From positions 384,001-448,000 of the forward strand of contig CBDHHL010000056.1 of assembly GCA_965263355.1 (NCBI GenBank): a DNA stretch of 64,000 nucleotides, given 5' to 3'. Within the stretch, counting starts at the first letter, position 1; every line of letters begins with the position of its first letter. A model generated the notes under the pieces. The model searched no databases, had not been told where the DNA came from, and worked only from the letters and a program-made list of their open reading frames with translations. This document shows, piece after piece, positions 35,964 to 51,854 of this stretch. The translations under genes were made by a program, and so were the position numbers. This stretch comes from Leptolyngbyaceae cyanobacterium. Its GTDB lineage: Bacteria > Cyanobacteriota > Cyanobacteriia > Phormidesmidales > Phormidesmidaceae.

Positions 35964-36118
35964 TGAGAAGGCTGAAACCTATATGCAGCCTACTGTATAA
36001 GAGTCAAGCACCATTACGAGCCTTATCAGCTCTACAATGCCTTATATTAAATTGTACAGACTTGCAGACAAATTGCATAGTCTTCACAATTTTTCATCGC
36101 CAAAAGAAGGCTTAAAAA

Positions 36119-36454
36119 TGGGGGCGGAGGGACTTGAACCCTCACGACCGTTTAAGGTCAACGGATTTTCACCCTCCCACAGCTTTCGCTGTTGCCACGC
36201 TGAGCGGGCTTTGAGGATTGGACCCTCCCTTTACCCTCGACTTGACGTTAGGGTAGCTCCCGTCGGGCCTCTGCACCTTCCCTGCAAGAGGACATTTGCC
36301 TCTTACGGGGCTTGGCTCAGGATTGCCTTATCTTCATCAGAACTTACCAATGAAGACTTAGGTTTCCCTGAGTTTGAGAGCTTCCACTTAGCAGATTTCT
36401 CCACTAAGGCTCAGTTTTCTAAGTCCGCAGCGTCTACCATTCCGCCACGCCCCC
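36119..36454 (-). tRNA. trnL: tRNA-Leu(UAA) split by a group I intron (exon 1 36454-36421, exon 2 36169-36119)
   Basis: Minus strand reads GGGGGCGTGGCGGAATGGTAGACGCTGCGGACTT^...^AAAATCCG...GGGTTCAAGTCCCTCCGCCCCCA. The acceptor stem pairs and the anticodon U^AA is restored on splicing. Confidence 0.97.
36170..36420 (-). ncRNA. Group I intron (about 251 nt) in the trnL(UAA) anticodon
   Basis: Conserved elements AAACTCAGGGAAACCTAA, GGCAATCCTGAGCC, AAGGTGCAGAGGCCCGACGGGAG and AAAGGGAGGGTCCA; ends in the terminal G. Confidence 0.95.
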
Positions 36455-36611
36455 TTTAGTTGAGTTAACTAGAGTGAATATATTAAACAGCTTTGCTGGT
36501 TATTTGACCACTCTCTAAAAAACTCCTGTTTAATTCCAACACCAACTGGTACTCTGTGCAACCCCCTGAACGCTATGATGACTTACGGTATGTGCAAAAC
36601 ACATAGGGGCT

Positions 36612-36842
36612 ATGGACAACCTCGATATTTCACTTTTAATTACCTTGGCAGTATATGCCGGGCTGGCGGGTCTTTACTTGTTAGTGATACCTGGGATATT
36701 GCTTTTTTATCTAAAACAGCGCTGGAATGTGGCATCATCCATTGAACGCTTATTGATTTATTCGCTGGTATTTGTATTTTTCCCAGGCATGTTGCTACTG
36801 TCACCGTTTCTCAATTTTCGTCCCCAGCGGCGTGAGATTTAA
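36612..36842 (+). CDS. ndhL: NDH-1 subunit L
   Basis: [35 protein letters not shown]; ndhL-DUF3007-trpA synteny. Confidence 0.95.
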
Positions 36843-36844
36843 CT

Positions 36845-37147
36845 ATGAGACGGATTGATGTAATTGGTATTGGCCTGGGTGTGTTTGTGGCTGGTGGTGG
36901 ATTGTATTTGCTCTTTTCGCTGGCAGGTTTTGATGGCATTTCGGCAGGTATATGGAGCCAAGTTATTTTTACCGGCGGTCTGTTGGGATGGGTTATCACC
37001 TACCTGACGCGGGTATTTTCCAAAAAAATGACTTACAATCAGCAGCTTAAAGATTATGAAGACGCGGTTCTCCAAAGGCGTTTAGATGAAATGTCCGATG
37101 AAGAATTAGGGCAACTACAGGCAGAACTGGAGGCGGAGAAGCCGTAA
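36845..37147 (+). CDS. DUF3007 family protein
   Basis: MRRIDVIGIG..AGIWSQ..MTYNQQLKDYEDAVLQ; located between ndhL and trpA. Confidence 0.9.
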   Translation: MRRIDVIGIGLGVFVAGGGLYLLFSLAGFDGISAGIWSQVIFTGGLLGWVITYLTRVFSKKMTYNQQLKDYEDAVLQRRLDEMSDEELGQLQAELEAEKP

Positions 37148-37153
37148 CACACT

Positions 37154-37954
37154 ATGGGGAAATCGGTTTCAGCTCAATTTCAGACATTACGCGACCAAAA
37201 AGGCTGTGCGCTTATTCCGTTTATTACGGCTGGAGATCCTGATTTAGCCACTACTGCAGAGGCGCTGCGAGCGTTAGATCGAGCGGGGGCAAATTTAATT
37301 GAGCTAGGTGTGCCCTATTCTGACCCATTAGCCGATGGTCCAGTGATTCAAGCCGCCGCCACCCGTGCCTTAGAACGTGGGGTTACGCTGGATGCTGTGT
37401 TAACCCTGATTGCGGAGGTATCGCCAGAGCTGTCGGCACCTATTGTGCTATTCACTTATTACAATCCCATTCTCAATCGAGGGATTGAACAATTTTTGCA
37501 AGATATTCATCGGGCGGGGGTGCGTGGTCTTGTCGTGCCAGATTTACCCCTGGAAGAAATGGATGTACTGCTAACACCTGCCAAAGAGATTGGCGTTGAG
37601 GTCACCCTGTTAGTCGCACCTACCACGCCCAAAGAACGAATTGTTGCGATCGCACAGCAATGTCAAGGCTTTATTTACCTGGTCAGTGTTACTGGGGTTA
37701 CAGGCATGCGCCAACAAATTGGCAATCGCGTACAGAGTTTATTGCAAGAGCTTCGGTCTGTTACCGATAAACCCATTGGTGTAGGGTTTGGCGTATCTTC
37801 CCCTGAACAAGCTACTCAGCTAAAAACGTGGGGAGCTGATGGCGTTATTGTCGGCAGCGCCTTTGTAAAGCGACTGGCTGCCAGTGGGTCTACCGATAGT
37901 GGCCTTACAGAGGTTGAACGCTTTTGTCAACAACTCAAACTAGCCTTGAACTGA
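37154..37954 (+). CDS. trpA: Tryptophan synthase alpha chain
   Basis: [41 protein letters not shown] and DGVIVGSA. Confidence 0.98.
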
Positions 37955-38666
37955 CCACTTACAACACAATGCATAAACAGTATCTTTTCGCAACGGTTGA
38001 ATTGCTTGCTACATTTACAAAACTCACCAATTAGAACGTCGGCGCATCAAACTTTTCTGCTTGGTTGGTTTTACCTACTCATAAAACTCTTGACAGATTT
38101 TCAGCAAGTCATCGGAATTATCCCTGATTTGTTGTTACAGTTTGCTGATAAATATTTCACGATGTAACCTTCAATAATTCTTCACGTTGGTTCAATCGAT
38201 CTTCAATCAAGGGGTAAGCCTCTCTTAAGTCAGGACATGAGAGCGGCAATTTCTATGATTTTCATTGATAAAACGGTGAAAATTTAGAAACCTTTGCTGA
38301 TTTTTTATCAAACTTTCCTGATTTATTGGGCCTCAGTGTAAGCCCCTAAATTTTGACTGCTGCTGTGGGGTGTTGCACTCACCCGAACCAGAGTGTAATA
38401 ATCCTTGACCAGAGACAGGAATAACCGTATAAATACGGCAAACTTCCTTGATTTATTGAATTGTTTACATAAATAGTAAGTGGTTTTTCCTAGATCTCTA
38501 ATCAAAGTTGATTAGAGTTTTTACTGATAAGTTTTCAGTTCAGTCATGTTGGGTTTATGACGATACGCCAGTTAGTCATAACCATTGGCGGAACACTGCT
38601 TCGAGTTGCTTGTGGATCGAGGGCGATGTTTGCGATTTGCCTTGTTGTTGGTGCCTGTGAGGGGTC

Positions 38667-39641
38667 ATGAGAGTTTTGAAAAGCCGTCCTAGAGGTGCTA
38701 TTTGGCACTTGTTTAAAGCTGTAAGTTTTTTCTTGGTGGGTGTTCTATTGAGCACTCTATTGGTTTATGCCCATACCCCTGTGATGCCTGTGGATGCTCA
38801 GGTTCAGGTGAACAATACGGTGTCTGGGGCGTTTGATGACCCAACAGATCCTGATCGTCCTAGGTTGGTGGCTCCCGGCAACACAACGACGATTGGTGTC
38901 CCTCCTATCGGTGAGCAGCTGTTAAGGATAACAAAAACAGCAGATAAATCGGCAGCTGAACCAGGTGATGTGGTGATCTATCGCCTTTTGGTTGAAAACC
39001 TCAGTGAAGTGGCAGCCGGCCCTCTAACTGTTATGGATAATCTGCCACGTGGTTTGGAATATATCGAAGATTCAGTCAATACAGCCCCAATACCGCCTAA
39101 TTTGACAGATTTTTCTATATCAGGACGACAGCTGACGTTTCAGCTTGATTCCTTGGCCGCTGGTGCAATGGTCCAAATTCTTTACGCTGTGACCTTGACA
39201 CCGGATGCAATTAGGGGTTCAGGTATCAACGTTGCGAGTGCATCATCTCCTGGTTTTCCAACAGTTCAAGCTGAATTTCGTTTAACCATCCGCCCCGGCA
39301 TTTTGTCCGACTGTGGCACCATCATTGGTCGAGTCTTTGTGGACAAAAACTTTGATGGAGAACAACAGTCTGGTGAACCCGGCGTACCTAACGCGGTTAT
39401 TTACATGGATGACGGTAACCGCATCATTGCAGACCCAGATGGTCTTTTCTCTATGGCCAATGTGGTGTCGGGTAACCGGGTTGGTGTACTTGATCTGAGT
39501 AGTTTGCCGGGTTACACCTTGGCCCCCAATCTCTACCGCATAGAAAACAACAGTCAGTCTAGGCTGGTTCGCTTAGAACCAGGCGGTTTAGCTCGTATGA
39601 ACTTTGCAGTAACACCGACCTACGGGGAGGGCCAGAACTAA
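38667..39641 (+). CDS. Secreted DUF11 (Ig-like) + SdrD-B/CnaB-like domain protein
   Basis: Signal peptide, LRITKTADKSAAEPGDVVIYRLLVEN..VMDNLPRG DUF11 pattern, and GTIIGRVFVDKNFDGEQQSGEPGV domain. Confidence 0.85.
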   Translation: MRVLKSRPRGAIWHLFKAVSFFLVGVLLSTLLVYAHTPVMPVDAQVQVNNTVSGAFDDPTDPDRPRLVAPGNTTTIGVPPIGEQLLRITKTADKSAAEPGDVVIYRLLVENLSEVAAGPLTVMDNLPRGLEYIEDSVNTAPIPPNLTDFSISGRQLTFQLDSLAAGAMVQILYAVTLTPDAIRGSGINVASASSPGFPTVQAEFRLTIRPGILSDCGTIIGRVFVDKNFDGEQQSGEPGVPNAVIYMDDGNRIIADPDGLFSMANVVSGNRVGVLDLSSLPGYTLAPNLYRIENNSQSRLVRLEPGGLARMNFAVTPTYGEGQN

Positions 39642-42600
39642 TGATGATGCGTTTGTTATCTAACTTACTTTGTTTAGGACTGTTCACCACACTGACGGGT
39701 GTGGTGGCGTTACTGCAGCCGTCTCAGGCAGCTCAAGGGCAAGCGACTCAAGGGCAAGCTGCTTTATCACCCATTGACATTGATGCAGATATGGCGGTTG
39801 GTGCTGAGACACCACATCTGTTAGCTCAGGCCAGTGATGACCTACCTGACGATTTGCTCGATGCAAATACGTTGCCAGTGGCAGAGGACCCTGGAGAAGC
39901 CGAAGGCTTTATTGATGAAACCATTATTCGGTCGGTTCCCAGCCATCTGCCACCGCTGATTCAAGAGGAATTGGGCGATAATTTATCCCTGGAGATTTTT
40001 CCGGCAGCTGAGTCGTTTCTCCCGGCTGATGGTCGGTCCACGCTCACCCTTAAGGGAAATATTCTGGATGAGAATGGCAATCCTGTGCGTGAAGATGTGG
40101 TGGTTACCCTCACGGTCTCGGCGGGTAGCTTTATCGGTGCTGACTACGATATTGACCGCAGCGGGTTTCAGGTATTAGCTCGCCAAGGAGAATTTGAGGT
40201 TGAGCTACGGTCATCTCTTGATGCTCAAACGGTAACTATCCGTGCTAGCGCGTCAGCCCGTGAGGCTTTAGGCCTGGTAGACGATAAAGACACATCGCGA
40301 AAGCCAGCGGCTGAGCTTGACGGTTACACTCAAGTTAATTTCACGACGCCCTATCGTCCATCTTTAGTGGCCGGTGTCGTTGACTTTCGCTTTGGACCTG
40401 GGGCAACGAATCTTTGGGGTCGCTATGCCGACTTCCTGGAGCCAGGTGAGCTGGGAGAGTATGATGCTGATCTGAATGCGGGAATTTTTGCGACAGGCAC
40501 CATTGGTGACTGGTTGTTAACGGCAGCGTTTAATAGTGAGCGGGCTTTAAACGAACGCTGTAATGACAACCGTCTCTATCGAGATGTTCAGAGCTGTGAG
40601 CAAACCTATCCTACCTATGGCGACAGTTCCACCACCGACTTTTTAACCCCCTCGATTGATAGTTTCTATGTTCGTTTTGAGCAAGACTCTCAGATCGTCG
40701 GATATGAGCCCAACTTCTTTATGTGGGGGGATTACGATACGGATGAATTTGCCCGATTCTCCCAGGAGTTTTCGGCCCTAAGTCGTCAACTTCACGGCTT
40801 TAAGGGGAACTATACCTTCGGCAATGGGTTACAGTTAACGGCCCTGTATGCCAACAATGTCAGAGCACTGCAACGGGACACGATTGTGCCCGATGGCACG
40901 AGTGGTTATTACTTCCTGTCCCGTCGTCTGGTGTTGGCTGGTAGTGAAGATCTCTTTTTCGAGATTGAGGAACTCAACCGCCCCGGCACAGTGATTGAGC
41001 GAGTGCGTTTACAGCGAGGGATCGATTACACCATTGACTATGATCGCGGGGCAATTCTGTTTAATAGTCCTGTTTCTGCTGTTGATGCTAATCCCTTTGG
41101 TCCGGCACTAGTCCGACGAATTGTAGCGACCTATCAAATAGACGGGGACGATGATGATGGAGATTTGTTTGGTGGGCGACTGCAATACAATTTTGATACC
41201 AGCCTCGAATCCCCTAGCTGGATAGGTGCTTCCGCTATTGTTGAAAATCAGGGTGCTCAAGATTTTAGCTTAATTGGTGTGGATGCCCTGGTACAGCTGG
41301 GTGATTCTGGGCGGCTGGTGGCTGAGTTAGCCCGTTCTTCTTTGGATAACCCCACTGTTGATGAAGACGGCACTGCCATTCGGGTCGAGGCTACGGGCAA
41401 AATCACGCCAGATTTAGCAGGAACAGCCTATTTTAGAGATGCCGATAGTGGTTTTCGCAATGAGGCAACAACGAGTTTTAGGGCAGGCCAAACCCGTTGG
41501 GGTGGGCAATTGGGCTACAACCTGAGTCGCGATACTCAGCTCCAGCTCCAGTTTGACCGTGAAGAAAACAGAGGTAATGAAGATCTGATTCCCACGGCCA
41601 CAGAACAACTCCTGAATCCAGGCTTGGTCAGATCTGATGGGGCCACCGTAAACAATTCCATCACCACGATTCGGGCTGGGGTACAACAGCAGTTTGGTGA
41701 CCTCACGGGTAACTTGGATTGGGTTTATCGCGATCGCAATGACCGAGTTACCGGTACCGATGTCGAATCTAGTCAAATATCCGCTGGTCTCACCTGGCCC
41801 CTAGCCGAGAGATTAACCTTCCGGGCTCAATCAGATATTGCTCTGAGTAACGAAGATGACGCCTATCCAGGCCAAACGGTGGTAGGTCTTGACTGGGAAG
41901 TTTTGCCGGAAATTACCCTGAGATTTGCCCAGCGGTTCTTCCATGACGATGATGCCACTCCCGATGCTTTAACCACCGTCGATGCCCTCGTCAACTATGA
42001 CCTCACTGACAATACCGAATTGACTGGCCGTTACTCCATTTTGGGAGCCAACAACGGCATGAGTGGACAGGGGGCTCTGGGTTTGAACCATAGAATCAAT
42101 CTGGGGCCTGGGCTCCATGCAGATTTTGGTTTCCAGCGGATCTTTGGCGACAGTCTCTCCTCCATTACTGGCGGCAACCAGGTGATACAGCCCTACGCTG
42201 TAGGGCAGTCATCGGCGTCCTTAGGTCTGGTAAGCGGTACCACCTATACCTTGGGTCTGGAATACACTGACAACTCTGATTTTCAGGCCAGTGCCCGGTT
42301 TGAGCACCGCGACTCTGAGGATGGTGACAACACAGTTGTCACCGCATCCGCTGCGGGCAAACTCTCACCCGCACTGACAACGTTGGCTCGGTTTGAACAT
42401 GCTAACTTTTCTAATCAAACAATTACCGATCGGCTAAATAGTTCTACTAGCGCTCGTTTAGGCCTGGCTTACCGCAATCCAAAGAGTGACAAGTTCAATG
42501 CGCTGTTGAGCTATGAATATGCCATCAACCCCTCCAGTACGCCTAATTCTCTGCTGGTGGGTGCAGGCTCAGATTCGATTCAAGAGCATACCCTGGCCAT

Positions 42601-43144
42601 GGAGGGCATTTATGCTCCTAGCTGGCGCTGGGAGTTTTACGGCAAATATGCTCTAAGAGCAACTAACGCCGATTTAGATTCCCTGGGTGTAACATCGTCC
42701 AATGCTATTCACTTGGCTCAATTTAGAGCCACCCATCGGTTCGCCTACCGTTGGGATGTCACTGGAGAAATCCGTTACATCACTCAACCGGAAACGAATT
42801 ATGACGAGGTTGGATTTGCCCTCGAAGCCGGTTACTATCTCACACCAGACCTGCGTTTGGGATTGGGGTATAGCTTTGGTAGCGTCAATGATCGTTCCTT
42901 GGGTGGTAGTGGCTATCGATCAGATGATGGCCCCTACATAGGAGTTACCTTTAAGGTCAATGAGCTTTGGGATCAGTTTGGTCTTCAGCAGATAGCCCCG
43001 GCACAACAAGAGGAGTCCCTGGTCGAGGCCGACGGTTCGCCACCACCCACTGCAGAACCGGTCAGTGTTGTTCCGACATCAAATCAAGTAACGGAAGTCC
43101 CACAGACAACAGTTCCACAGACAACTGACGGGGGTGAGGAGTAA
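39641..43144 (+). CDS. Large predicted outer-membrane beta-barrel protein with N-terminal Ig-like domain
   Basis: Signal peptide, PADGRSTLTL invasin-like Ig motif, and about 700 aa of alternating amphipathic strands rich in Gly, Tyr and Phe; TAATG overlap with the upstream gene. Confidence 0.75.
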   Translation: MMMRLLSNLLCLGLFTTLTGVVALLQPSQAAQGQATQGQAALSPIDIDADMAVGAETPHLLAQASDDLPDDLLDANTLPVAEDPGEAEGFIDETIIRSVPSHLPPLIQEELGDNLSLEIFPAAESFLPADGRSTLTLKGNILDENGNPVREDVVVTLTVSAGSFIGADYDIDRSGFQVLARQGEFEVELRSSLDAQTVTIRASASAREALGLVDDKDTSRKPAAELDGYTQVNFTTPYRPSLVAGVVDFRFGPGATNLWGRYADFLEPGELGEYDADLNAGIFATGTIGDWLLTAAFNSERALNERCNDNRLYRDVQSCEQTYPTYGDSSTTDFLTPSIDSFYVRFEQDSQIVGYEPNFFMWGDYDTDEFARFSQEFSALSRQLHGFKGNYTFGNGLQLTALYANNVRALQRDTIVPDGTSGYYFLSRRLVLAGSEDLFFEIEELNRPGTVIERVRLQRGIDYTIDYDRGAILFNSPVSAVDANPFGPALVRRIVATYQIDGDDDDGDLFGGRLQYNFDTSLESPSWIGASAIVENQGAQDFSLIGVDALVQLGDSGRLVAELARSSLDNPTVDEDGTAIRVEATGKITPDLAGTAYFRDADSGFRNEATTSFRAGQTRWGGQLGYNLSRDTQLQLQFDREENRGNEDLIPTATEQLLNPGLVRSDGATVNNSITTIRAGVQQQFGDLTGNLDWVYRDRNDRVTGTDVESSQISAGLTWPLAERLTFRAQSDIALSNEDDAYPGQTVVGLDWEVLPEITLRFAQRFFHDDDATPDALTTVDALVNYDLTDNTELTGRYSILGANNGMSGQGALGLNHRINLGPGLHADFGFQRIFGDSLSSITGGNQVIQPYAVGQSSASLGLVSGTTYTLGLEYTDNSDFQASARFEHRDSEDGDNTVVTASAAGKLSPALTTLARFEHANFSNQTITDRLNSSTSARLGLAYRNPKSDKFNALLSYEYAINPSSTPNSLLVGAGSDSIQEHTLAMEGIYAPSWRWEFYGKYALRATNADLDSLGVTSSNAIHLAQFRATHRFAYRWDVTGEIRYITQPETNYDEVGFALEAGYYLTPDLRLGLGYSFGSVNDRSLGGSGYRSDDGPYIGVTFKVNELWDQFGLQQIAPAQQEESLVEADGSPPPTAEPVSVVPTSNQVTEVPQTTVPQTTDGGEE

Positions 43145-45219
43145 TGAAATCAACTATGCAGGTATCGAAACTAGTCAGAACGGTCGCCCTGGCCGTTACG
43201 TTTCCCCTAACGGTCCACACGTCAATGGTTCAAGCCCAGCCAGAAACGGTTACCCCCTATTCCATTATTGTTAACTCAGCCAATGATGGCGTTGTGCGAC
43301 CCGACGATGAACTCACACTGCGGGAAGCCATTGAGGTGATCAATGGCACATTGCCATTGACCGCACTGAGCACAGCTGAACAGGCCCGGATCACACCAGC
43401 GGCTAGCCCGTCGATTAATTTTAGCTTGGCAGGTGATACTACCATTGCCCTGGTGGCACCATTGCCTCCCATTATGGCTCCAGGCACCCTGATAGATGGG
43501 TCCAGCCAACCTGGTTATGGCCCTGTTTCTACCACGGATACCATGGTTACTGCAGTGCCTACCCCCGTAGTGGCACTGACCCCAGCCACCGGATCTGAAG
43601 TGCTCCGTGGACTGACCATTACGGCTGATGAGGTAACGGTGCGCGGTCTCAGCCTGTATGGATTTTCGGCCAGACATCGCTCCACCCAAACGACGCCCCC
43701 AGCCGATATTCTGATTACCCACCTGGCACCACCTGTAGACGCAGGTCTACCTGACCCTCCAGGCTGGCGAACGTTGCGGCCTGATGAAGACTCCAATGCC
43801 CCTGTGGGTGTAGTGATTGAGGATAACTGGTTAGGTATGTCGCCAACGGGACAAATGCCACCTGAAGAGCAGATGTCTGCCCTGGGTGTGTTTGTTTTTA
43901 ACGGTCTGGATACGGTGATCCAACGTAATCGAATTGAGTTTCATGAGGGCAGCGGTATCATTACGGGAGCCCAGGCCATGGGCATGGAGGTTACGGAAAA
44001 TACGATGCGGGCGAACGGTGTGGCTGGAATCCCCGATGCCATTCGTTTGGATGGCAACATTGATGGCACTGAAATTTATGGCAACTTGATGTGCGGCACC
44101 GATGGTAGTGGTGTGTTTATGTTTAAGCCTCAGGGTGCTGCCCGAATTTACAGTAACGATATTCGATTTAATGGGCGACGCTTTAGACGGGCTGCGGTCT
44201 ATCTTATGGGTAATGGCCATGAGGTGACTGATAATGTGATTCAGCATCAGCCAGGTCCGGGAGTTGCGATCGCATCCTATCCTCGCAGTGAAGGCAACGT
44301 TATTCGCAACAATACCTTTGCGGCTCTCGATGGCCTCAGCGTAGACCTGGGCCATAACGACAACAGCGGCATTCAAGATTTTCAGCGAAAAGACGGCCCC
44401 AACCCACCCCGCAATTCCTCGATGCGGCGTCGGGATACGGCCAATGGCTCGATCAACGCTCCGGAATTTGATGACTATGTCTTCCCAGTAAGCAATGGTC
44501 AAGTCACCTTAAGTGGTATCGCCGATCCGGGAACTGCCATTGACATCTATAAAGTTGTGGATCGCCAAGGGTACTACGGTGCCCTCAACGAATATGTGAC
44601 CACCGTATCTGCAGACGCAACCGGCAGTTTTATTGTAGAAGTCAATGTTCCGGACGGTACGTTACTCAGTGCGATCGCCACTGATGACGTTTACGGCACC
44701 TCGGAACCCTCGGCCATCACTGGTGTTGGTACCCTGGGAGATGGGCCAACAACCCCCGCCATGCCAAGTTGTGAAATTGCTCAAGAGCCCCCAGAACCCG
44801 CTCCGGAACTGCCGCCAGATCCAGTGATTTTACGAATTCCTCGCAACATTCACTTTGCCCTCGATAAGTCAGACATCTCTCCTGAGTCTGCCACCATCAT
44901 GGATGAGATTATCGCTGTTTTACTAGAATATCCATTTATTACCGTTGAGTTACAGGGACACACCGATCCTCGCGCTAGCAATGCTTATAACCAGGCCCTG
45001 GGTGAACGGAGGGCTTTGGCAGCGAGAAACTATCTGCTTCAGCGGGGGATTGCCCCAGAGCGCATGCGAATTCGCTCCTTTGGTGAAACACAACGGGTAT
45101 CTAGCGGTTCTGGACGCATTGATTATGCCCGCGATCGTCGCACTGAGTTTATCTTTACCGATACTCGCGGTCTCGACATCATCTACGAAAACTTGGAAAC
45201 AGATTTACAGCTCGAATAA
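43144..45219 (+). CDS. Secreted parallel beta-helix protein with C-terminal OmpA-like peptidoglycan-binding domain
   Basis: Signal peptide, IVNS..D..TLREAI (CSLREA-like) cap, G-x-x-I-x-x-N repeats, Pro-rich linker, and IHFALDKS..GHTD..YNQALGERRA. Confidence 0.88.
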   Translation: MKSTMQVSKLVRTVALAVTFPLTVHTSMVQAQPETVTPYSIIVNSANDGVVRPDDELTLREAIEVINGTLPLTALSTAEQARITPAASPSINFSLAGDTTIALVAPLPPIMAPGTLIDGSSQPGYGPVSTTDTMVTAVPTPVVALTPATGSEVLRGLTITADEVTVRGLSLYGFSARHRSTQTTPPADILITHLAPPVDAGLPDPPGWRTLRPDEDSNAPVGVVIEDNWLGMSPTGQMPPEEQMSALGVFVFNGLDTVIQRNRIEFHEGSGIITGAQAMGMEVTENTMRANGVAGIPDAIRLDGNIDGTEIYGNLMCGTDGSGVFMFKPQGAARIYSNDIRFNGRRFRRAAVYLMGNGHEVTDNVIQHQPGPGVAIASYPRSEGNVIRNNTFAALDGLSVDLGHNDNSGIQDFQRKDGPNPPRNSSMRRRDTANGSINAPEFDDYVFPVSNGQVTLSGIADPGTAIDIYKVVDRQGYYGALNEYVTTVSADATGSFIVEVNVPDGTLLSAIATDDVYGTSEPSAITGVGTLGDGPTTPAMPSCEIAQEPPEPAPELPPDPVILRIPRNIHFALDKSDISPESATIMDEIIAVLLEYPFITVELQGHTDPRASNAYNQALGERRALAARNYLLQRGIAPERMRIRSFGETQRVSSGSGRIDYARDRRTEFIFTDTRGLDIIYENLETDLQLE

Positions 45220-45240
45220 GGCCTGTGTTGGCTTGCTCAT

Positions 45241-48200
45241 TTGTTAGACCAATCTGTCAGTAACAGTAGAGAACTAGTAGAGAATTCAGCCGTGAAATTT
45301 TGTCATAACCACTTAAAGCAACTGTTCTTGCAAGGCCTTCCTTTCACTGGTAAAGGCTATTTCAAGCAAATGCCAAGCCATGGGAAACTAGCCCAGCCCC
45401 TGGCTTGGAGTCTTCCCCTTATCAGTATCCTGGCCAGTGCGCCCACTGCCTTAGCTCAAGTCAATGTCTCATTAGACTGGGATACCGTTGACTTTCCCGT
45501 AACAGGTTCAGAGATCTACACCGATGTTGGGGGTAGTGGTGTTGATGTACAGATCTCGGTAACGGGGGCTGTTACAGGTAACGGTAACCCTAACCTTAAC
45601 TTGGGGGATTCTGGCTTCGTCACAACGACTCCATTCACTGCAGGCGATCCACCGGTTACACCAGGTGCCGTAGAAACCCTGCTTGTCGGTATTGAAGGCG
45701 GCTCCGAAGCAGTTGTTACCATCGAGTTTTTTGAAACTGGCACAACAACTCCTGTTGACGTTGATCTGGCCTCTATTCCCCTGTTTGATGTTGATCTTCT
45801 GTTTAATAGTAATAATGTAGTTAGCTGGCAGGATGAAGTTGAAGTATCGGCTTCATCAGGAGGAGTAGCTGCTGACATTACAACTAGTGATGGTGCTGGT
45901 GCGAATGAAGGGTCATTTAATGCAGAGACTGCTGGAGCTGATTCAGTCACTCTGATTGGATTTAATACCATCGATGATCCCGGTATACCAGCTGCTCCGA
46001 GTGTAAATGCTAATTCACCAAGACAACCACTTCGAACTACGCCAACAACCATTGGTGAGTTTCAACAGGGCAATGCTACCGTTAACTTTCCCGGTGAAGT
46101 CGATACAATTACCATTGTGTTTCGTGATGGTCCAGCCACTCCTACAGGATCGGGGAATTTCCATGCGATCGCTATCGGTGATATTTCCTTCACCGCCAAC
46201 CTGACACCAGCAACTCCCTCTATCGGTATTGCTAAAGAGATTGACGGCGTACCCACCGAGACGGCTACTCCTGGAATCTTTGAGCTGACCTACAACCTAA
46301 CCATTGCAAATACGGGCAGTGAAGCTCTGAATACCGTCCAGATTGTCGAAGACTTTATCGACCCGATTACCGGTGGACCTACCTTTGGTCCTGGTAATAT
46401 CATTTCTTCAACCATCGGGACAGTTATACCCACTGGTGGCGCTATTATCGAAACTAACGACGCCTACAACGTCGCAGCCACTGGTGTAGCCAACGCTAAT
46501 GTCCTAGTCGCCGCTAACTCCAGCCTACCCGTTGGGGCCAGCGCGACAATTCCCATCACGATCCAAGTAGATACCACTCAGCCTGATTTCCCACCTGATG
46601 GAGGCGACGGCTATAACAACCAGGCCACCGTTACTGCAATAGGAGAAAGTGGTACTCCGGCCCCACCGGATGACTCAGATAATGGCACCGAGCCAGACCC
46701 TAATGGTAACGGAGATCCAACGGAAGACGGTGAAAATGACCCCACCCCTGCATCCTTTGCCTTTGCACCGGCCATTGGTCTGGCTAAACAGGTTGCTTCC
46801 CCCCCTACGCCAGCCGCCACGCCGGGTTTCTTTAACATTACCTATCTGCTAACGGTGGAAAACCTGGGTAACGAACAATTGGATGAGGTACAGATTGTCG
46901 AAGACTTTATCGATCCCCTGACTGCTTTACCTACCTTTGGTCCTGGCAATATTACTGTTTCAAATATTGGAACAATTACCAATAACGGTGGTGGCACCTT
47001 AACCCTCAATCCTGACTACAACGCTACTGCTACGGGCACTGCTAATAGCGATGTCCTGGCCACTGGAGGAAGTCTGCCCATCGGGGCCAGTGCGACGATT
47101 CCCATCGTTATTCAAGTAGACACCACTCAGCTCGACTTTCCAGACGATACCGCTGGTGATGGCTTTAACAACCAGGCCACAGCGTCTGGAACTGGTGCCA
47201 ATAGTGGAGAAGGGGTAGAGGATGAGTCAGATGATGGTACCGAGCCAGATTCGGATGGTAACGGCAGTGCAGATGATCCAGGTGAGGATGATCCCACCCC
47301 AGTCACCTTTGAGACTGAACCCGCTGTCGGTATAGCGAAACAGATTGCCGACGGACCAACCGAAACGACTACTCCCGGCATCTTTGAGCTGACCTACAAC
47401 CTAACCATTGAAAATACAGGCACTGAAGCCCTAGATGCTGTCCAAATAGATGAACCCTTCTTTGACCCGATTACCAATGGGCCCACATTTGGCCCTGACA
47501 ATATTGTGTCTTCAACCATCGGGACGGTCATACCCAGTGGTGGCGCTGTTATCGAAACTAACGACAACTACAACGTATCAGCCACTGGCCCCACCGATAC
47601 CAGTGTCTTGGTGGAAGCTAGCTCCAGCCTACCCTTGGGTGCCAGTGCGACGATTCCCATTACAATACAGGTAGATATTACTCAGCCTGATTTCCCAGCT
47701 GATGGGGGAGACGGATATAACAACCAGGCAACCGTTACTGGAACGGGAGAAAGTGGCAATCCAGCACCACCGGATCTGTCGGACGATGGCACCGAGCCAG
47801 ACCCAAATAACAACGGTGATCCAACGGAAGACGGTGAAAATGATCCCACACCCGCATCCTTTGATTTGACGCCTGCCATTGGTGTGTCTAAACGAGTAAT
47901 CTCTGCCACTACTCAGCCAGATGGTGACTTTGAGGTGGTTTATGAAACAACCGTTGAGAACCTGGGTCAAGTCACCTTAACTGATGTGCAATTGGTGGAA
48001 GATCTAGATGACACCTATGGAGAGGGGGCCTTTCAGATTATTTCAACCCCTGACTTCACACCACGTGGCACGGTAGATGAAGTCGAACTTGAAGTAAATG
48101 ACAACTTTGACGGTGATGCTCCCAACGGTATTCCCGGTGATACCAATATCATTTTGCCAACGGGACAAACTTTGCAGCCAGGTCAAAATTCTACATTCCA

Positions 48201-49560
48201 ATTCACGGTTGAAATTGATAACGACTTAATCGTCACACCTGACGAGTTTGAAAACCAAATCGAAGCCAGTGGTCTACCTCCTGGTGCAACCACTGATGCT
48301 GAACGCGTTCGTGACTTGTCTGACGACGGTGTGGAAACAGACGAAAATCCCAACGATGGACAACCCGGTAATGGACCTAACGAAGATGATCCGACTGTCG
48401 TGGCTCTACCGCCAACCCCGGTTATCGGTTCTGCTAAACAGACAGTGTCAGCGTTGGTTGAATCGGCTGGAACCTTTGGTACTAATACGGCTCGGATAAC
48501 CTATGACATTATCGTGGCTAACATTGGTAATGTTCCTTTGTTAGAGGTTCAGTTAGAAGAGGATCTCAGTGAAGTATTTGGTCCGGCAGATACGTTTGAG
48601 GTTGTCAGTATTACCCGGATCGGTGGTGCTAATACAGTACAGGTAGATCCTGGCTTTGACGGTGTTAACGGCGGTAATACAACATTACTGGCAGATGTAG
48701 CTGGTACTGCAACAGGTACATTGGCCGTTGGCGCATCCAGTACTTTACAGCTAGTGGTGGATGTTGACTTTAGCAGTCCCAATCTGATTACGCCTGTACC
48801 AGGCCCCTATCTAAATCAGGTGATCGCGACGGCTACTGATGATCCGAATGATCCCCCTGGCACTCCTCCTGTCACGTCTGACCCATCTGATAGTGGTATG
48901 GATGTTGATCCAGATGGAGATGGTAATCCCAATGAAGACAATGGTGTGGACCCAGATCCAGAGAATCCAGAGAATGACGGTAATGAAAATACGCCGACAC
49001 AGGTCACATTTACCCCTGATTTACGGCTGGTCAAACGCATTACTCGGGTAACTCGAAATGGCACAGAGCTGGCAATTGCAAACATTGGCTTATTTAATGA
49101 TCAAGCTAGCGACACCAACGATAATGCGTTGGCAACACTATCGGGTGATAATTTCCCCCTAGGACGAGCAGATATCACCGATGTGTCTTTACAGTCTGGT
49201 GATCTTGTTGAGTACACTGTCTACTTCTTTAACGCGGGTGTTGGTGTCGCTGAAAATGTGGAGATGTGTGATGAACTACAAGTACCGAGCGTCTTACAGC
49301 CCACTAGTTTACAGTTGGCTCAACCCACTGATGGTTCTACTCTAAACTTCTCTAATATTGGACCTCTGTCTGCAAGAGCACCTTTATCTCCTTTGGAGCC
49401 TTCTTGTGAGACGGCACCTGGAACATTTCCATCAGGTGTACCTTCAGGAGGTTTGGGCGTTGGTGCGGGTGGCGGAGTCGTCGTTGGGGGGCCTGAGTCT
49501 GGGCTTAACGTTAATAGCGGCGAAGTGGGTGCGTTTCGGTTTGAAATTGAGATTCCATAA
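45241..49560 (+). CDS. Large acidic repeat surface protein or adhesin with six DUF11-like Ig domains (true start probably near ATG 45370)
   Basis: Signal peptide ending ALA|Q, unique N-terminal domain, repeats whose IG.AK-type Lys codons lie at 46234, 46786, 47338, 47890, 48436 and 49033, and D/N/P-rich DPNGNGDP linkers. Confidence 0.88.
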   Translation: MLDQSVSNSRELVENSAVKFCHNHLKQLFLQGLPFTGKGYFKQMPSHGKLAQPLAWSLPLISILASAPTALAQVNVSLDWDTVDFPVTGSEIYTDVGGSGVDVQISVTGAVTGNGNPNLNLGDSGFVTTTPFTAGDPPVTPGAVETLLVGIEGGSEAVVTIEFFETGTTTPVDVDLASIPLFDVDLLFNSNNVVSWQDEVEVSASSGGVAADITTSDGAGANEGSFNAETAGADSVTLIGFNTIDDPGIPAAPSVNANSPRQPLRTTPTTIGEFQQGNATVNFPGEVDTITIVFRDGPATPTGSGNFHAIAIGDISFTANLTPATPSIGIAKEIDGVPTETATPGIFELTYNLTIANTGSEALNTVQIVEDFIDPITGGPTFGPGNIISSTIGTVIPTGGAIIETNDAYNVAATGVANANVLVAANSSLPVGASATIPITIQVDTTQPDFPPDGGDGYNNQATVTAIGESGTPAPPDDSDNGTEPDPNGNGDPTEDGENDPTPASFAFAPAIGLAKQVASPPTPAATPGFFNITYLLTVENLGNEQLDEVQIVEDFIDPLTALPTFGPGNITVSNIGTITNNGGGTLTLNPDYNATATGTANSDVLATGGSLPIGASATIPIVIQVDTTQLDFPDDTAGDGFNNQATASGTGANSGEGVEDESDDGTEPDSDGNGSADDPGEDDPTPVTFETEPAVGIAKQIADGPTETTTPGIFELTYNLTIENTGTEALDAVQIDEPFFDPITNGPTFGPDNIVSSTIGTVIPSGGAVIETNDNYNVSATGPTDTSVLVEASSSLPLGASATIPITIQVDITQPDFPADGGDGYNNQATVTGTGESGNPAPPDLSDDGTEPDPNNNGDPTEDGENDPTPASFDLTPAIGVSKRVISATTQPDGDFEVVYETTVENLGQVTLTDVQLVEDLDDTYGEGAFQIISTPDFTPRGTVDEVELEVNDNFDGDAPNGIPGDTNIILPTGQTLQPGQNSTFQFTVEIDNDLIVTPDEFENQIEASGLPPGATTDAERVRDLSDDGVETDENPNDGQPGNGPNEDDPTVVALPPTPVIGSAKQTVSALVESAGTFGTNTARITYDIIVANIGNVPLLEVQLEEDLSEVFGPADTFEVVSITRIGGANTVQVDPGFDGVNGGNTTLLADVAGTATGTLAVGASSTLQLVVDVDFSSPNLITPVPGPYLNQVIATATDDPNDPPGTPPVTSDPSDSGMDVDPDGDGNPNEDNGVDPDPENPENDGNENTPTQVTFTPDLRLVKRITRVTRNGTELAIANIGLFNDQASDTNDNALATLSGDNFPLGRADITDVSLQSGDLVEYTVYFFNAGVGVAENVEMCDELQVPSVLQPTSLQLAQPTDGSTLNFSNIGPLSARAPLSPLEPSCETAPGTFPSGVPSGGLGVGAGGGVVVGGPESGLNVNSGEVGAFRFEIEIP

Positions 49561-49585
49561 GATACCCTACTTTCAATCATCCATC

Positions 49586-49627
49586 AGCCCTCTAACATTG
49601 GTTTATTGAATGTTAGAGGGCTATTTT
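49586..49627 (+). terminator. Hairpin or terminator after the adhesin gene
   Basis: AGCCCTCTAACATT...AATGTTAGAGGGCT 14-bp stem followed by ATTTT. Confidence 0.7.
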
Positions 49628-49645
49628 CTGGAGGTCCACATTATT

Positions 49646-50863
49646 ATGGTCTTCTCAAAACGTAAACGCCTGTTAATTTGTGGGTTCTATGGCCATTACA
49701 ATTTAGGCGATGAAGCCATGTTGGCAGGTATGCTTGGCTTGCTCAAACACTGTCTTGGTGCTGATTATCTCCAGCAGATCACTGTTTATTCCAATGATCC
49801 AGAGGATACAACCAAACACCATGGTGTTGCTACGTTACGTAACCAGTTTCCCCGTCGTCGTCGTGAAAAGTGGATAAAGTGGGCTGAACATACACTGGCA
49901 TTATGGCAACACCAATTTTTTATCTTGGGGGGAGGTGACTTACTGAGGGACTCGCCTGGGCGGGAGGTGGCTACTGTGTGGTTAAAGCCGCTTCAGCGAG
50001 CGATGGCTTTTGGTTGTCGTACCATTGTTTTGGGCATTAGTGTAGGGGAGGTTTGGAAGCCTCAGACAAAGAGCGCCATTGTTAACACTTTAAATCAAGT
50101 AACGTTGATCGCTGTGCGTGATCAACAGTCTCAGAGGCAACTAAAGCAAATGGGGGTGACTTGTCCTATCTACGTGTCGAGTGATTTAGCACTGCATATA
50201 ACGCCTACCCAATTACGCTCGAGGTCTCAAGCAGCGTTACCTACATCAGACTTTAATATTTCTGCGCCTAATGTAGGCATTTCTATACGGTCTTTATTGG
50301 GGCGTACGCCAGAACTCGATCACAGTATTGAGCAGCAGTTTTATCAGGAAATGGCCAAGGTCATTGATTATTTGATTGAAGTGAAGGGAGCAACGGTTTC
50401 AATGTTGCCGTTTCAAACCCATCCCCCTAGCTATAAGTCTCAGCACCGCCCTACGGATAATGATGAAGATGCGATCGCAACCGTATTGTCTTACTGTCAA
50501 CACCGACAGCGGGTAAGTGTCCACAGACCATTTGATTCTGTGGCACAGGCTATCGATACATTGAAGTCGTTTGACTTAGTCATTGGCACTCGCCTGCATT
50601 CCCTTGTGCTAGCTGCATTGTCGGGCATTCCCCTATTGGCCGCTGTTTATGATAAGAAGGTGTCTGGGTTTATGGCAGAAATTGACCAACAGATCAACAG
50701 TATTGCAGTGCAGCAGTTTACCTTGGCAACCGTTAAACCTCGCCTTGACGATCTATTGACCCATCACCAGCAAAATCATCATAGAATTGTGCAGATGGTT
50801 GAGCAATATCGTCGGAAGACGGATCCTGTTTTAGAAAAGCTATCTCAACTCCTGGGGAGCTGA
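49646..50863 (+). CDS. Polysaccharide pyruvyl transferase (CsaB/WcaK-like)
   Basis: GFYGHYNLGDEAML, GGGDLL, AVRD..S, SDLA and GTRLHS. Start placed at ATG 49646 after GGAGG, because the ORF-track start at 49610 lies inside the hairpin. Confidence 0.9.
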   Translation: MVFSKRKRLLICGFYGHYNLGDEAMLAGMLGLLKHCLGADYLQQITVYSNDPEDTTKHHGVATLRNQFPRRRREKWIKWAEHTLALWQHQFFILGGGDLLRDSPGREVATVWLKPLQRAMAFGCRTIVLGISVGEVWKPQTKSAIVNTLNQVTLIAVRDQQSQRQLKQMGVTCPIYVSSDLALHITPTQLRSRSQAALPTSDFNISAPNVGISIRSLLGRTPELDHSIEQQFYQEMAKVIDYLIEVKGATVSMLPFQTHPPSYKSQHRPTDNDEDAIATVLSYCQHRQRVSVHRPFDSVAQAIDTLKSFDLVIGTRLHSLVLAALSGIPLLAAVYDKKVSGFMAEIDQQINSIAVQQFTLATVKPRLDDLLTHHQQNHHRIVQMVEQYRRKTDPVLEKLSQLLGS

Positions 50864-50864
50864 A

Positions 50865-51854
50865 ATGAGTCATTTTTCTAGCACGCCCATATTTATTGTC
50901 GGGATGCCTCGTTCTGGAACAACGCTTCTGACTAGTATGTTGTCGGCCCATCCTAGGATTGCGATCGCCCCAGAAACCCACTATCTCTCCTATTGGATAC
51001 GGGAGTATAAAAACCTAAATCTCTCTTCTCCAAAAGACTTTGACCATTTTTGGCAAGCTATCAGCCGTAGTCTGCGGTTCTCATATTTTGGTATCAGTGC
51101 TAACAAAACCCGAAATCGCATCTTAGCCAAAGGTTTACCGTCACACCAGCATATTTTGTCAGGCTGGTTAGAAGAGTATGCCAACAGTTTCCATAAGCCA
51201 CGTTGGGGTGAAAAGACGCCACTACACTATCAAAACCTGGAGCAAATACTCACCTGGTTTCCCAATGCTCAGGTTATATGGATGCTGCGAGACCCAAGAG
51301 CGGTCGCTGCATCTCTCCAAAAAGTCCCTTGGGCTAGTAATTATATTCATATCCATGCCCAGCAGTGGCAACAAAGCCTGATTAAGTTTGAACAAAACTG
51401 GCAAAGCGATCCACGCATCCATCTATTGCACTATGAAAAACTCGTACAACAACCTGAAAAATACCTCACAGCATTATGCCAATTTCTCGGCGAAACCTAT
51501 ACGCCTGATATGTTAACAGCACGCTCCGAAGCCCATACTCCCCTGATCAATCGTCAGGGTTGGGCGCTTCAGCATCTACAATCAGCCCTACAACCCATCT
51601 CAGCTAACGCTATCAATAAATGGCATCACGATCTCACCAAACACCAGATTGAGATTATTGACTTGCTCACCTTTCCCCATGCAGCTAACTATGGCTACAT
51701 GGCAAACACATCAACCCTCGGTACCCATGCCCGCTTAACATTAACAATAGAAAGGCTGCGGGTAAAACTCGATCGTAAGCTTACACATTGGCGAACAAAA
51801 TTACTTAAACGGTCCAAGCAAACAGCAAAATACATTGGTGCAGACCCTGAATAA
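50865..51854 (+). CDS. Sulfotransferase family protein
   Basis: PIFIVGMPRSGTT, RWGEKTP and RDPRAV; paralogue of 1678-2673. Confidence 0.87.
   Translation: MSHFSSTPIFIVGMPRSGTTLLTSMLSAHPRIAIAPETHYLSYWIREYKNLNLSSPKDFDHFWQAISRSLRFSYFGISANKTRNRILAKGLPSHQHILSGWLEEYANSFHKPRWGEKTPLHYQNLEQILTWFPNAQVIWMLRDPRAVAASLQKVPWASNYIHIHAQQWQQSLIKFEQNWQSDPRIHLLHYEKLVQQPEKYLTALCQFLGETYTPDMLTARSEAHTPLINRQGWALQHLQSALQPISANAINKWHHDLTKHQIEIIDLLTFPHAANYGYMANTSTLGTHARLTLTIERLRVKLDRKLTHWRTKLLKRSKQTAKYIGADPE

Follow-up and report, generated by a model that had tools for sequence, protein, structure and literature searches.

A CLIPPER-type isopeptide domain probably split between an adhesin and its operon partner in a cyanobacterium

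A stretch of 64,000 nucleotides from a Leptolyngbyaceae cyanobacterium (GenBank assembly GCA_965263355.1, contig CBDHHL010000056.1, positions 384,001 to 448,000 of the forward strand), referred to below as the window and numbered from its own first letter, contains a four-gene operon on the + strand (38667..49560) that encodes a fibrillar adhesin and a smaller secreted protein, here called the partner. We consider it probable that a single isopeptide domain of the CLIPPER/DUF11 type, which is CnaA-like, is split over these two proteins and is restored by strand complementation and perhaps also by a covalent lock between lysine (Lys) and asparagine (Asn). The adhesin ends in a truncated sixth domain (D6), and the strands missing from it are found at the mature N-terminus of the partner. 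The parts of this proposal differ in strength: complementation of D6 by the partner extension is likely on the grounds of sequence and modelling, and the covalent bond, to which a conserved triad shared between the two chains points, is close to evenly balanced, with a slight lean in its favour.

The DUF11 family was renamed CLIPPER in a study whose passages drawn on here describe a crystal structure, 9IFR, with an isopeptide bond between Lys715 and Asn806 and with Asp748 as the catalyst; they also name DUF7507 (CLIPPER_2) and DUF7619 as sister families, and, for CnaA-like domains, they place the bond between the first strand and the penultimate one, which lie on opposing sheets (PMC12617251). 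For the site of assembly, the covalent bond, the C-terminal anchoring and the role of the barrel in export, we infer the following course. After export, the two-strand extension of the partner would insert into D6 and complete its sandwich, placing N50 of the partner in the core beside K1265 and D1344 of the adhesin. These three residues would probably react autocatalytically to give a Lys–Asn isopeptide bond with loss of ammonia (NH3), locking the adhesin to the partner. The partner would serve as the base subunit, its C-terminal domain tying the fibre to an outer-membrane barrel and an OmpA-type protein encoded in the same operon, and the barrel may be the export pore. The features concerned are as follows.

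38667..39641, +: partner gene ('adaptor' or base subunit), 324 residues (open reading frame and translation, Pfam/NCBIfam)
38667..38798, +: predicted signal peptide of the partner, residues 1-44 (hydrophobic helix 9-36 in the AlphaFold2 model)
38799..38903, +: orphan two-strand N-terminal extension of the partner, residues 45-79 (conservation, AlphaFold2, co-fold)
38916..39281, +: complete CLIPPER/DUF11 domain of the partner, residues 84-205, with its own triad K90/D124/N188 (Pfam, 9IFR profile match)
39291..39638, +: C-terminal CnaB/SdrD_B-like domain of the partner, residues 209-324, with invariant C216; proposed anchor (conservation)
45241..49560, +: fibrillar adhesin or cargo gene, 1439 residues counted from TTG (Pfam)
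46198..48975, +: five complete CLIPPER-type repeats of the adhesin, each with Lys, acid and Asn (motif positions)
48976..49557, +: truncated sixth domain D6 of the adhesin, residues 1246-1439 (motifs, conservation, AlphaFold2, co-fold)

Five complete repeats and a truncated sixth domain

The adhesin matches DUF7507 (69.7 bits, cut-off 27), DUF11 (39.6 bits, cut-off 24.6) and TIGR01451 (40.9 bits) in Pfam and NCBIfam. A preliminary description of the window, drawn up from the letters alone, had listed a series of Lys, acid and Asn motifs, the adhesin stop and the QVQVNNTVSG of the partner with its codon at 38799, and a motif scan of the translations found all of them in place. First-strand Lys motifs occur at residues 328 (IGIAK), 512 (IGLAK), 696 (VGIAK), 880 (IGVSK), 1062 (IGSAK) and 1261 (LRLVK), and mid-domain acid motifs at 366 (VQIVE), 550 (VQIVE), 734 (VQIDE), 916 (VQLVE), 1103 (VQLEE) and 1340 (VEMCD). 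The Asn strands number five (YNNQATV 458, FNNQATA 642, YNNQATV 826, FENQIEA 1003 and YLNQVIA 1190), and domain 6 has none. Each of repeats 1-5, like the partner's own complete domain, contains Lys, acid and Asn together. This is not so in D6, which keeps K1265 (codon 49033) and D1344 (codon 49270) and ends, together with the adhesin, at ...GAFRFEIEIP. The stop codon occupies 49558-49560, and the next gene starts 50 nucleotides past it.

The truncation of domain 6, with Lys and acid retained and the Asn strand absent, had been recognized correctly in the preliminary description. It counted one missing strand, however, and two are missing, because the Asn strand is the penultimate one in CnaA-like domains according to the passages of PMC12617251 used here. 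Of the limits that had been given for the domain, the end at 49557 holds, whereas the start moves from about 49015 to about 48976 because the first strand of D6 precedes LRLVK. D6 matches DUF7619 at 26.7 bits over residues 1318-1364, a borderline score against the cut-off of 27, and contains the TIGR01451 core at 1319-1347. As far as its sequence tells, it is an incomplete member of the CLIPPER/DUF11 type, whose Lys/Asp/Asn triad is complete only in trans. The tail of the adhesin (...FRFEIEIP) has neither an LPXTG motif nor a hydrophobic stretch.

The true start of the adhesin is uncertain. Candidates are TTG 45241, GTG 45292 (the form in the database, 1422 residues) and ATG 45370; the last is the likely one, and a protein started there opens with a canonical signal peptide ending ALA/QV (ALA/QVNV). 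The N-terminal region (window 45450-46200, residues ~72-320) is without a Pfam or NCBIfam match and is presumably the binding tip.

The partner and its orphan strands

The partner matches DUF11 (44.3 bits, cut-off 24.6, residues 86-194) and TIGR01451 (46 bits, cut-off 24), and 2032 relatives were found in the database at E <= 0.001. Twenty-seven of them, sharing 56-86% identity, make up alignment A1, in which Q45, N50, N72, K90, D124, N188 and C216 are invariant (27/27). The signal peptide is probably cleaved between A44, nearly invariant, and the invariant Q45. Beyond this site lies the Asn strand QVQVNNTVSGAFD (residues 45-57), which bears N50 (codon 38814) and begins with the QVQVNNTVSG mentioned above. 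The preliminary description had taken this for a lone orphan strand ahead of the partner's own domain; an orphan strand with N50 does stand past the signal-peptide site, but the partner supplies two strands (45-57 and 70-79). The second, the last strand GNTTTIGV ('SNxT'), bears N72 (codon 38880) and resembles the '..NTPTQVTF' strand that closes adhesin repeat 5 directly ahead of domain 6.

The complete domain that follows is related to a solved structure. Searched against the PDB, the partner profile (A1) reached the CLIPPER crystal 9IFR (E 7.8e-6), with partner K90 and D124 falling on chain positions K10 and D43; where the alignment ends, N188 comes within one position of N101. By a numbering offset of 705, these chain positions would be Lys715, Asp748 and Asn806 of PMC12617251. 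It was the partner profile alone that reached 9IFR; sequence searches of the PDB with the partner by itself, the D6 profile and the adhesin repeats gave no meaningful match.

No other part of the partner is as well conserved as the C-terminal domain, which has about 70 invariant columns and recurs in 241 longer proteins; its SdrD_B score of 17 bits lies under the cut-off of 29.7. We propose that it acts as the anchor, and possibly it folds only when bound, for instance to the barrel or to the OmpA protein. The residue C216 (window 39312-39314, motif SDCGT) is the single invariant cysteine of the mature partner and could form an intermolecular disulfide with another component.

Conservation of the cut

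Both sides of the presumed split are conserved. On the partner side, the preliminary description had staked its case on conservation of the N-terminal Asn, and this is borne out by N50 in 27/27 aligned relatives and by an x-N-[QTR] motif in essentially all of 143 unique N-terminal extensions. The strict strand motif is present in 134 of these, and x-N-[QTR] in all but four of the rest. The four exceptions are multi-domain forms of the partner, in which the 62 residues taken upstream included a preceding complete DUF11 domain; in such partners it is the last strands of a complete DUF11 domain that sit ahead of the final DUF11 domain. Among short partners, a strict regular expression for the N-terminal strand matched 106 of 123; among long partners it matched 69 of 120, and among control open reading frames 3 of 384. 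The partner counts are too low in that some gene models are cut short at the N-terminus or include long leaders. Most of the longer partner-family proteins listed open, past the signal peptide, with hydrophobic-x-N-[QRN]-[AG]-x-x-x-[YF]. A fused cargo-partner protein, which would be a 'Rosetta stone' for the pair, was also sought, and among the 120 listed of the 241 longer partner-family proteins none carries a full D6-type domain.

On the adhesin side, 43 of 44 homologues found with D6 as query stop at the same strand, the exception being a record labelled partial; those sharing the cut include proteins of other cyanobacterial genera with 35-45% identity. A profile of 28 D6 domains (A2), searched against 1.84 billion representatives, added giant multi-repeat DUF11 proteins and further cargos. 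Among the 185 proteins collected, full-length D6-type domains are C-terminal, at most 6 residues from the end, in 69 of 69 cases. These domains are 24-79% identical to that of the window, and each of K1265, the adjacent Arg, the Cys-Asp pair (D1344) and F189 is present in all 69. Further proteins with the same truncated end, which the preliminary description had suggested looking for, were found in a search of five related genomes, cargos of a second cluster included.

The giant proteins indicate where the cut lies. Eight core-only internal matches run on past the equivalent ...RF-x-V-x-[IV]-[ND] strand, and in P0179, P0228 and P0293 that strand is followed by [VIL]-x-N-[QR]-A-[SQ], then by [ST]N-x-[ST], and then by the L-x-L-x-K of the next domain. 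This order in uncut internal DUF11 domains is the order at the mature N-terminus of the partner. On the question of whether D6 might close its sandwich unaided, D6-type domains always stop at the same strand (69/69), and their uncut internal relatives go on with the Asn strand. Read from these comparisons, the cut falls in the loop that precedes the Asn strand, and the truncation is more than chance and has been conserved as a design. A profile comparison of D6 with the partner (hhalign) aligned only the TIGR01451 core (43 columns, probability 86%), in which D1344 corresponds to D124; it does not bear on which strands are missing.

Structure prediction

AlphaFold2 predicts the CLIPPER domain of the partner, taken alone, with a predicted local distance difference test (pLDDT) score of 80-95 by blocks. 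In the same model the extension is a hairpin of low confidence (46-56 / 67-78), and ten-residue blocks over residues 41-80 score 50-68. D6 alone reaches pLDDT 80 and a predicted template modelling score (pTM) of 0.79.

D6 (with alignment A2) and partner residues 45-84 (with alignment A1) were co-folded in three runs, alongside three controls. The interaction prediction score from aligned errors (ipSAE) was 0.81, 0.73 and 0.85 (median 0.81), and the best of the three controls gave 0.00; the complex anticipated in the preliminary description is thus obtained in silico. Among solved complexes, 116 of 157 attain this mark; among mismatched pairs, 2 of 215 do. The pLDDT of the partner segment was at least 76, and contacts agreed between runs to at least 87%. 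The interface comprises partner residues 45, 47-60, 66-79 and 81, and both donated strands are buried in it. In the models, the Asn strand of the partner (52-57) pairs with the D6 strand 92-99, which bears C98-D99, and its last strand (residue 74) pairs with the first strand of D6 (16-22). K20 and D99 of the D6 model, that is K1265 and D1344, each contact partner V52, which lies on the same face as N50 and two residues away. At the level of the model, this layout is the canonical CnaA arrangement. When the D6 model was aligned to solved structures with VIA-align, 9IFR gave a middling Z of 6.2 with a root-mean-square deviation of 2.3 A over 89 aligned residues, and the pilins RrgB, BcpA and SpaD gave Z 6.4-6.9.

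Gene linkage and spread

A relative of the partner is encoded in 511 of 581 candidate stretches from species-representative genomes, and 80 loci from such genomes were kept for the analysis of linkage. The order partner, barrel, beta-helix/OmpA protein and cargo recurs across cyanobacteria in loci long enough to display it. In the 56 loci with a complete OmpA gene, the next gene is complete in 39, runs off the edge of the locus in 15 and was not called in 2. Of the complete fourth genes, 37 of 39 end in the strand of the truncated domain (33 exactly, 4 with 1-20 extra residues). The encoded cargos range in length from about 200 to about 2270 residues, and their passenger regions are highly variable. 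Of 301 genomes sampled evenly over the phylum, 40 have a partner-family match (E <= 1e-30). The proposal that domain 6 acts as a sorting signal fits these data: the same cut domain ends passengers across this whole range of lengths, with up to five or six cargos in a paralogous cluster.

In the remaining two of the 39 loci the fourth gene looks disrupted. In one (L002:16782-20846) it ends without the tail strand, and in the other (L007:16617-17810) it is split into separate open reading frames; a 796-residue database form of the gene from the latter genome bears the tail.

Alternative explanations

Several points weigh against the split domain as proposed. The evidence for it consists of sequence anatomy, conservation, linkage and binding at the level of a model. 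D6 alone is predicted with fair confidence, and neither instability nor an open groove is evident. The calibration counts for the ipSAE mark apply only approximately here because custom alignments were used. Complete CnaA domains are common among solved structures, so that the model may simply rebuild a familiar fold, and the co-fold result indicates compatibility by the model's own confidence rather than binding in the cell. The pair K20-N50 is absent from the 25 co-fold pairs of least error. A Foldseek search with the D6 model returned nothing at E <= 0.001, the VIA-align matches, many of them isopeptide domains of Gram-positive pilins, are middling (Z 6-7.6, where Z < 8 counts as such), and the aligned range on 9IFR (20-109) left the strand register unsettled. 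Four cargo tails (L036, L056, L059 and L069) carry residues beyond the strand. The C-terminal domain of the partner is predicted with pLDDT below 50, which lends no direct support to anchoring. Finally, the triad is no proof of a bond, because some DUF11 domains have no isopeptide bond according to the passages of PMC12617251 used here.

The last point bears on an explanation that we regard as unlikely and yet worth weighing, namely that complementation is non-covalent only, as in chaperone-usher or type V pili, and that the conserved K, D and N are structural. All the evidence for complementation fits it equally well; DUF11 domains without a bond and the lack of a listed contact between K and N50 in the co-fold are in keeping with it. 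Packing alone, however, hardly explains the strict invariance of K and D (69/69) and of N50 (27/27), and the positions match the crystallographic triad of 9IFR. A further possibility, which we hold to be quite improbable, is that D6 works by itself as a C-terminal domain for export or sorting that the barrel recognises, after the logic of the C-terminal domains of the type IX secretion system, the partner segment having a fold of its own or another target and the match between the two being a relic of DUF11 ancestry. The constant C-terminal position of D6-type domains on variable passengers, the pLDDT of 80 for D6 alone and the co-encoded barrel all agree with such a role, but the cut occupies one and the same loop throughout the 69 domains, every partner-family protein examined starts with the missing strands, the co-fold scores 0.81 against 0.00 for the controls, and the partner extension is poorly ordered alone; moreover, sorting and complementation can coexist.

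That the truncated end is an artefact of sequencing error, frameshift or gene decay has a negligible chance of being right. The disruption of the fourth gene in two related loci (L002 and L007) might suggest it, but the same end occurs in 69 of 69 domains of independent assemblies and in 37 of 39 complete fourth genes, and the stop in the window is followed by the next gene after only 50 nucleotides; the conservation of the truncated end refutes it.

Relation to known systems

Autocatalytic isopeptide domains are known as internal staples within single chains, and split versions of them are regarded as inventions of engineering: SpyTag/SpyCatcher, isopeptag/pilin-C, SnoopTag and Jo/In were made artificially by cutting CnaB or CnaA domains of Gram-positive origin. 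The Jo.In complex (5mkc) is among the matches of the D6 model in the structure searches (Foldseek, VIA). As in these engineered pairs, the cut of the domain puts one reactive residue on a short docking strand; unlike them, the cut described here would have evolved naturally, and it is conserved over many genomes.

In chaperone-usher pili, the incomplete C-terminal Ig fold of one subunit is filled by the N-terminal extension of the next. The operon of the window resembles them, at the level of sequence and co-fold, in pairing an incomplete Ig fold with the N-terminal extension of another subunit, and also in having a large operon-encoded barrel, a tip adhesin and a base subunit. It differs in that two strands would be donated and not one, in its predicted CnaA-like fold with a potential covalent lock, and in that neither a PapD-like chaperone nor an Usher was detected: no Pfam match to PF00577 (usher) or to a PapD-like chaperone was found in the four operon proteins or the flanking open reading frames, nor any such match in 15 homologues of the barrel. 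A profile of the barrel found no relative in the PDB (best E 0.3). Because the barrel lacks both a relative in the PDB and any signature of Usher or PapD, the likeness to chaperone-usher pili is functional only and not homologous. Type V pili use strand complementation without a covalent lock and have a different machinery. Sortase-dependent Gram-positive pili are unlike the present system, whose adhesin lacks LPXTG and a membrane anchor and in which no sortase family was found by Pfam among the 9 open reading frames scanned across 36037-51854.

Two fibres in the literature come closer to the proposed chemistry. BsaA of Clostridium perfringens, of the TasA family, is described in the parts of the report used here as assembling by 'exchange and lock', an N-terminal segment inserting as a beta-strand before an intermolecular isopeptide bond forms (bioRxiv 10.1101/2024.11.04.621531). 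N-terminal strand insertion and a subsequent intermolecular bond, the latter proposed here, would be common to both systems. As far as that source goes, BsaA is a Gram-positive homopolymer with a TasA-like fold and a link to type IV pilus secretion, whereas the window would encode a cargo-base heterodimer with a split CnaA-type domain and a dedicated barrel in a diderm; among the operon proteins there is no Pfam match of the TasA/peptidase M73 kind, the domains being DUF11 and DUF7507. In the archaeal thread Saci_0406, the relevant passages combine donor-strand complementation with a proposed spontaneous intermolecular bond that involves Asn and releases ammonia, linking Asn57 of subunit n+2 to the alpha-amine of the N-terminal Asp24 (PMC9715654). 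The pairing of complementation with an Asn-based bond, which for the window we propose, is alike in the two; the thread, so described, is archaeal, has a different fold and is a homopolymer.

From what the consulted passages of PMC12617251 say, the domains of the window belong with the CLIPPER, CLIPPER_2 and DUF7619 domains in family, in their triad of Lys (first strand), Asp and Asn (penultimate strand), and in their use in the stalks of fibrillar adhesins. Known CLIPPER domains carry the triad in one chain, whereas here the Asn and last strands lie on a separate polypeptide. The words 'split' and 'cyanobacteri' are absent from those passages, in which 'intermolecular' occurs five times, the occurrences examined being in the introduction. 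Literature searches, whose scope stopped short of subscription journals and of Tables S2 and S3 of PMC12617251, returned no description of a naturally split CLIPPER or CnaA domain or of this cyanobacterial cassette. We rate the system as a fresh variation on 'exchange-and-lock' fibre assembly. If the proposal is right, nature too joins two proteins by means of a split isopeptide domain, and does so in a sizeable minority of cyanobacteria; diderms would have a new route for mounting adhesins or building fibres, without sortase or a PapD-type chaperone and with a barrel family not yet characterised; and the pairs would be a source of new orthogonal tags and catchers.

A paralogous cluster in related genomes

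Three of five related genomes searched contain a second, paralogous cluster, at the following loci.

G001:C5:5358000-5402000: L100, L096 and L097
G005:C11: L098 and L101
G002:C1: L099

In G001 and G005, five or six cargo genes with the truncated domain accompany genes for a barrel, an OmpA protein and a partner-like protein of 515-517 residues, which opens with AEINNRAAFSY or DELYNQATFNY. The cluster of G002 consists of a barrel, a single cargo and a 560-residue partner-like protein containing ...SLNNQATYSY; no homologue of OmpA turned up in the stretch retrieved. All 8 of the 8 second-cluster cargos aligned keep the LVKRI and CD motifs, and they end in ...YG[FYH][FV][RK]F-x-x-[KR]V. The first mature residue of the partner, Q45 (window 38799-38801), is Gln in all 27 partners of the first cluster and Ala or Asp in two of the second; pyroglutamate formation, or a part for the new N-terminus in docking, are possible reasons for its invariance.

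Several cargos of G001 and G005 themselves open, past the signal peptide, with an orphan pair of the form I-[RK]-N-Q-A-T-G-S-F or I-S-N-T-A-T-A-T-Y ... S-N-T-V-x-V-E-V. To judge from such motifs, cargos with both an orphan strand and a cut domain would allow head-to-tail polymerisation. Among 34 cargos of the first cluster that were checked, none has such a strand right after the signal peptide, and eight matches to the regular expression look unrelated; the system of the window therefore looks like a two-subunit one, of tip and base. The base and cargos of the second cluster, some with an orphan I-x-N-Q-A-T-x-x-F strand, show the layout expected of a covalent heteropolymeric pilus with tip, shaft and base. 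With this support we tentatively raise the idea, on balance a doubtful one, that the operon of the window is the minimal two-subunit form of an unrecognised, sortase-free pathway of fibre assembly in diderms, in which subunits with an Asn-strand extension, a cut CLIPPER domain or both would be joined head to tail by strand insertion and a Lys–Asn lock, and in which an usher-like barrel of about 1200 residues and an OmpA-type protein would export and anchor the fibre.

The other operon genes and their surroundings

Between the partner and adhesin genes lie the remaining two genes of the operon.

39641..43144, +: outer-membrane beta-barrel gene, 1167 residues, with an N-terminal Big_1/invasin-like Ig domain (Pfam)
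43144..45219, +: gene for a beta-helix, Ig and OmpA-family peptidoglycan-binding protein, 691 residues (Pfam)

ATGA stop/start overlaps at 39638-39644 and 43141-43147 join the partner, barrel and OmpA genes and suggest translational coupling; the adhesin gene begins a short gap downstream of the OmpA gene. The barrel matches Porin_4 (32.7 bits, cut-off 27), and its Big_1 score of 21.6 bits is under the cut-off. Among its 15 homologues, weak matches to DUF2490 were found in 12, to Big_1 in 6 and to Invasin_D3 in 2. Its matches in the protein atlas are outer-membrane clusters that are either unnamed or bear only generic names, and the 1167-residue barrel is a member of a large uncharacterised outer-membrane family. 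The 691-residue protein matches OmpA (61.5 bits) and Beta_helix (49.7 bits), with Big_6 under the cut-off at 22.5 bits.

Upstream of the operon lies trpA. Directly downstream (49610-51854) are genes for a CsaB-type polysaccharide pyruvyl transferase and a sulfotransferase, and close relatives (L010, L012 and L015) likewise have csaB 3' of the cassette; this neighbourhood may link the system to the modification of cell-surface glycans.

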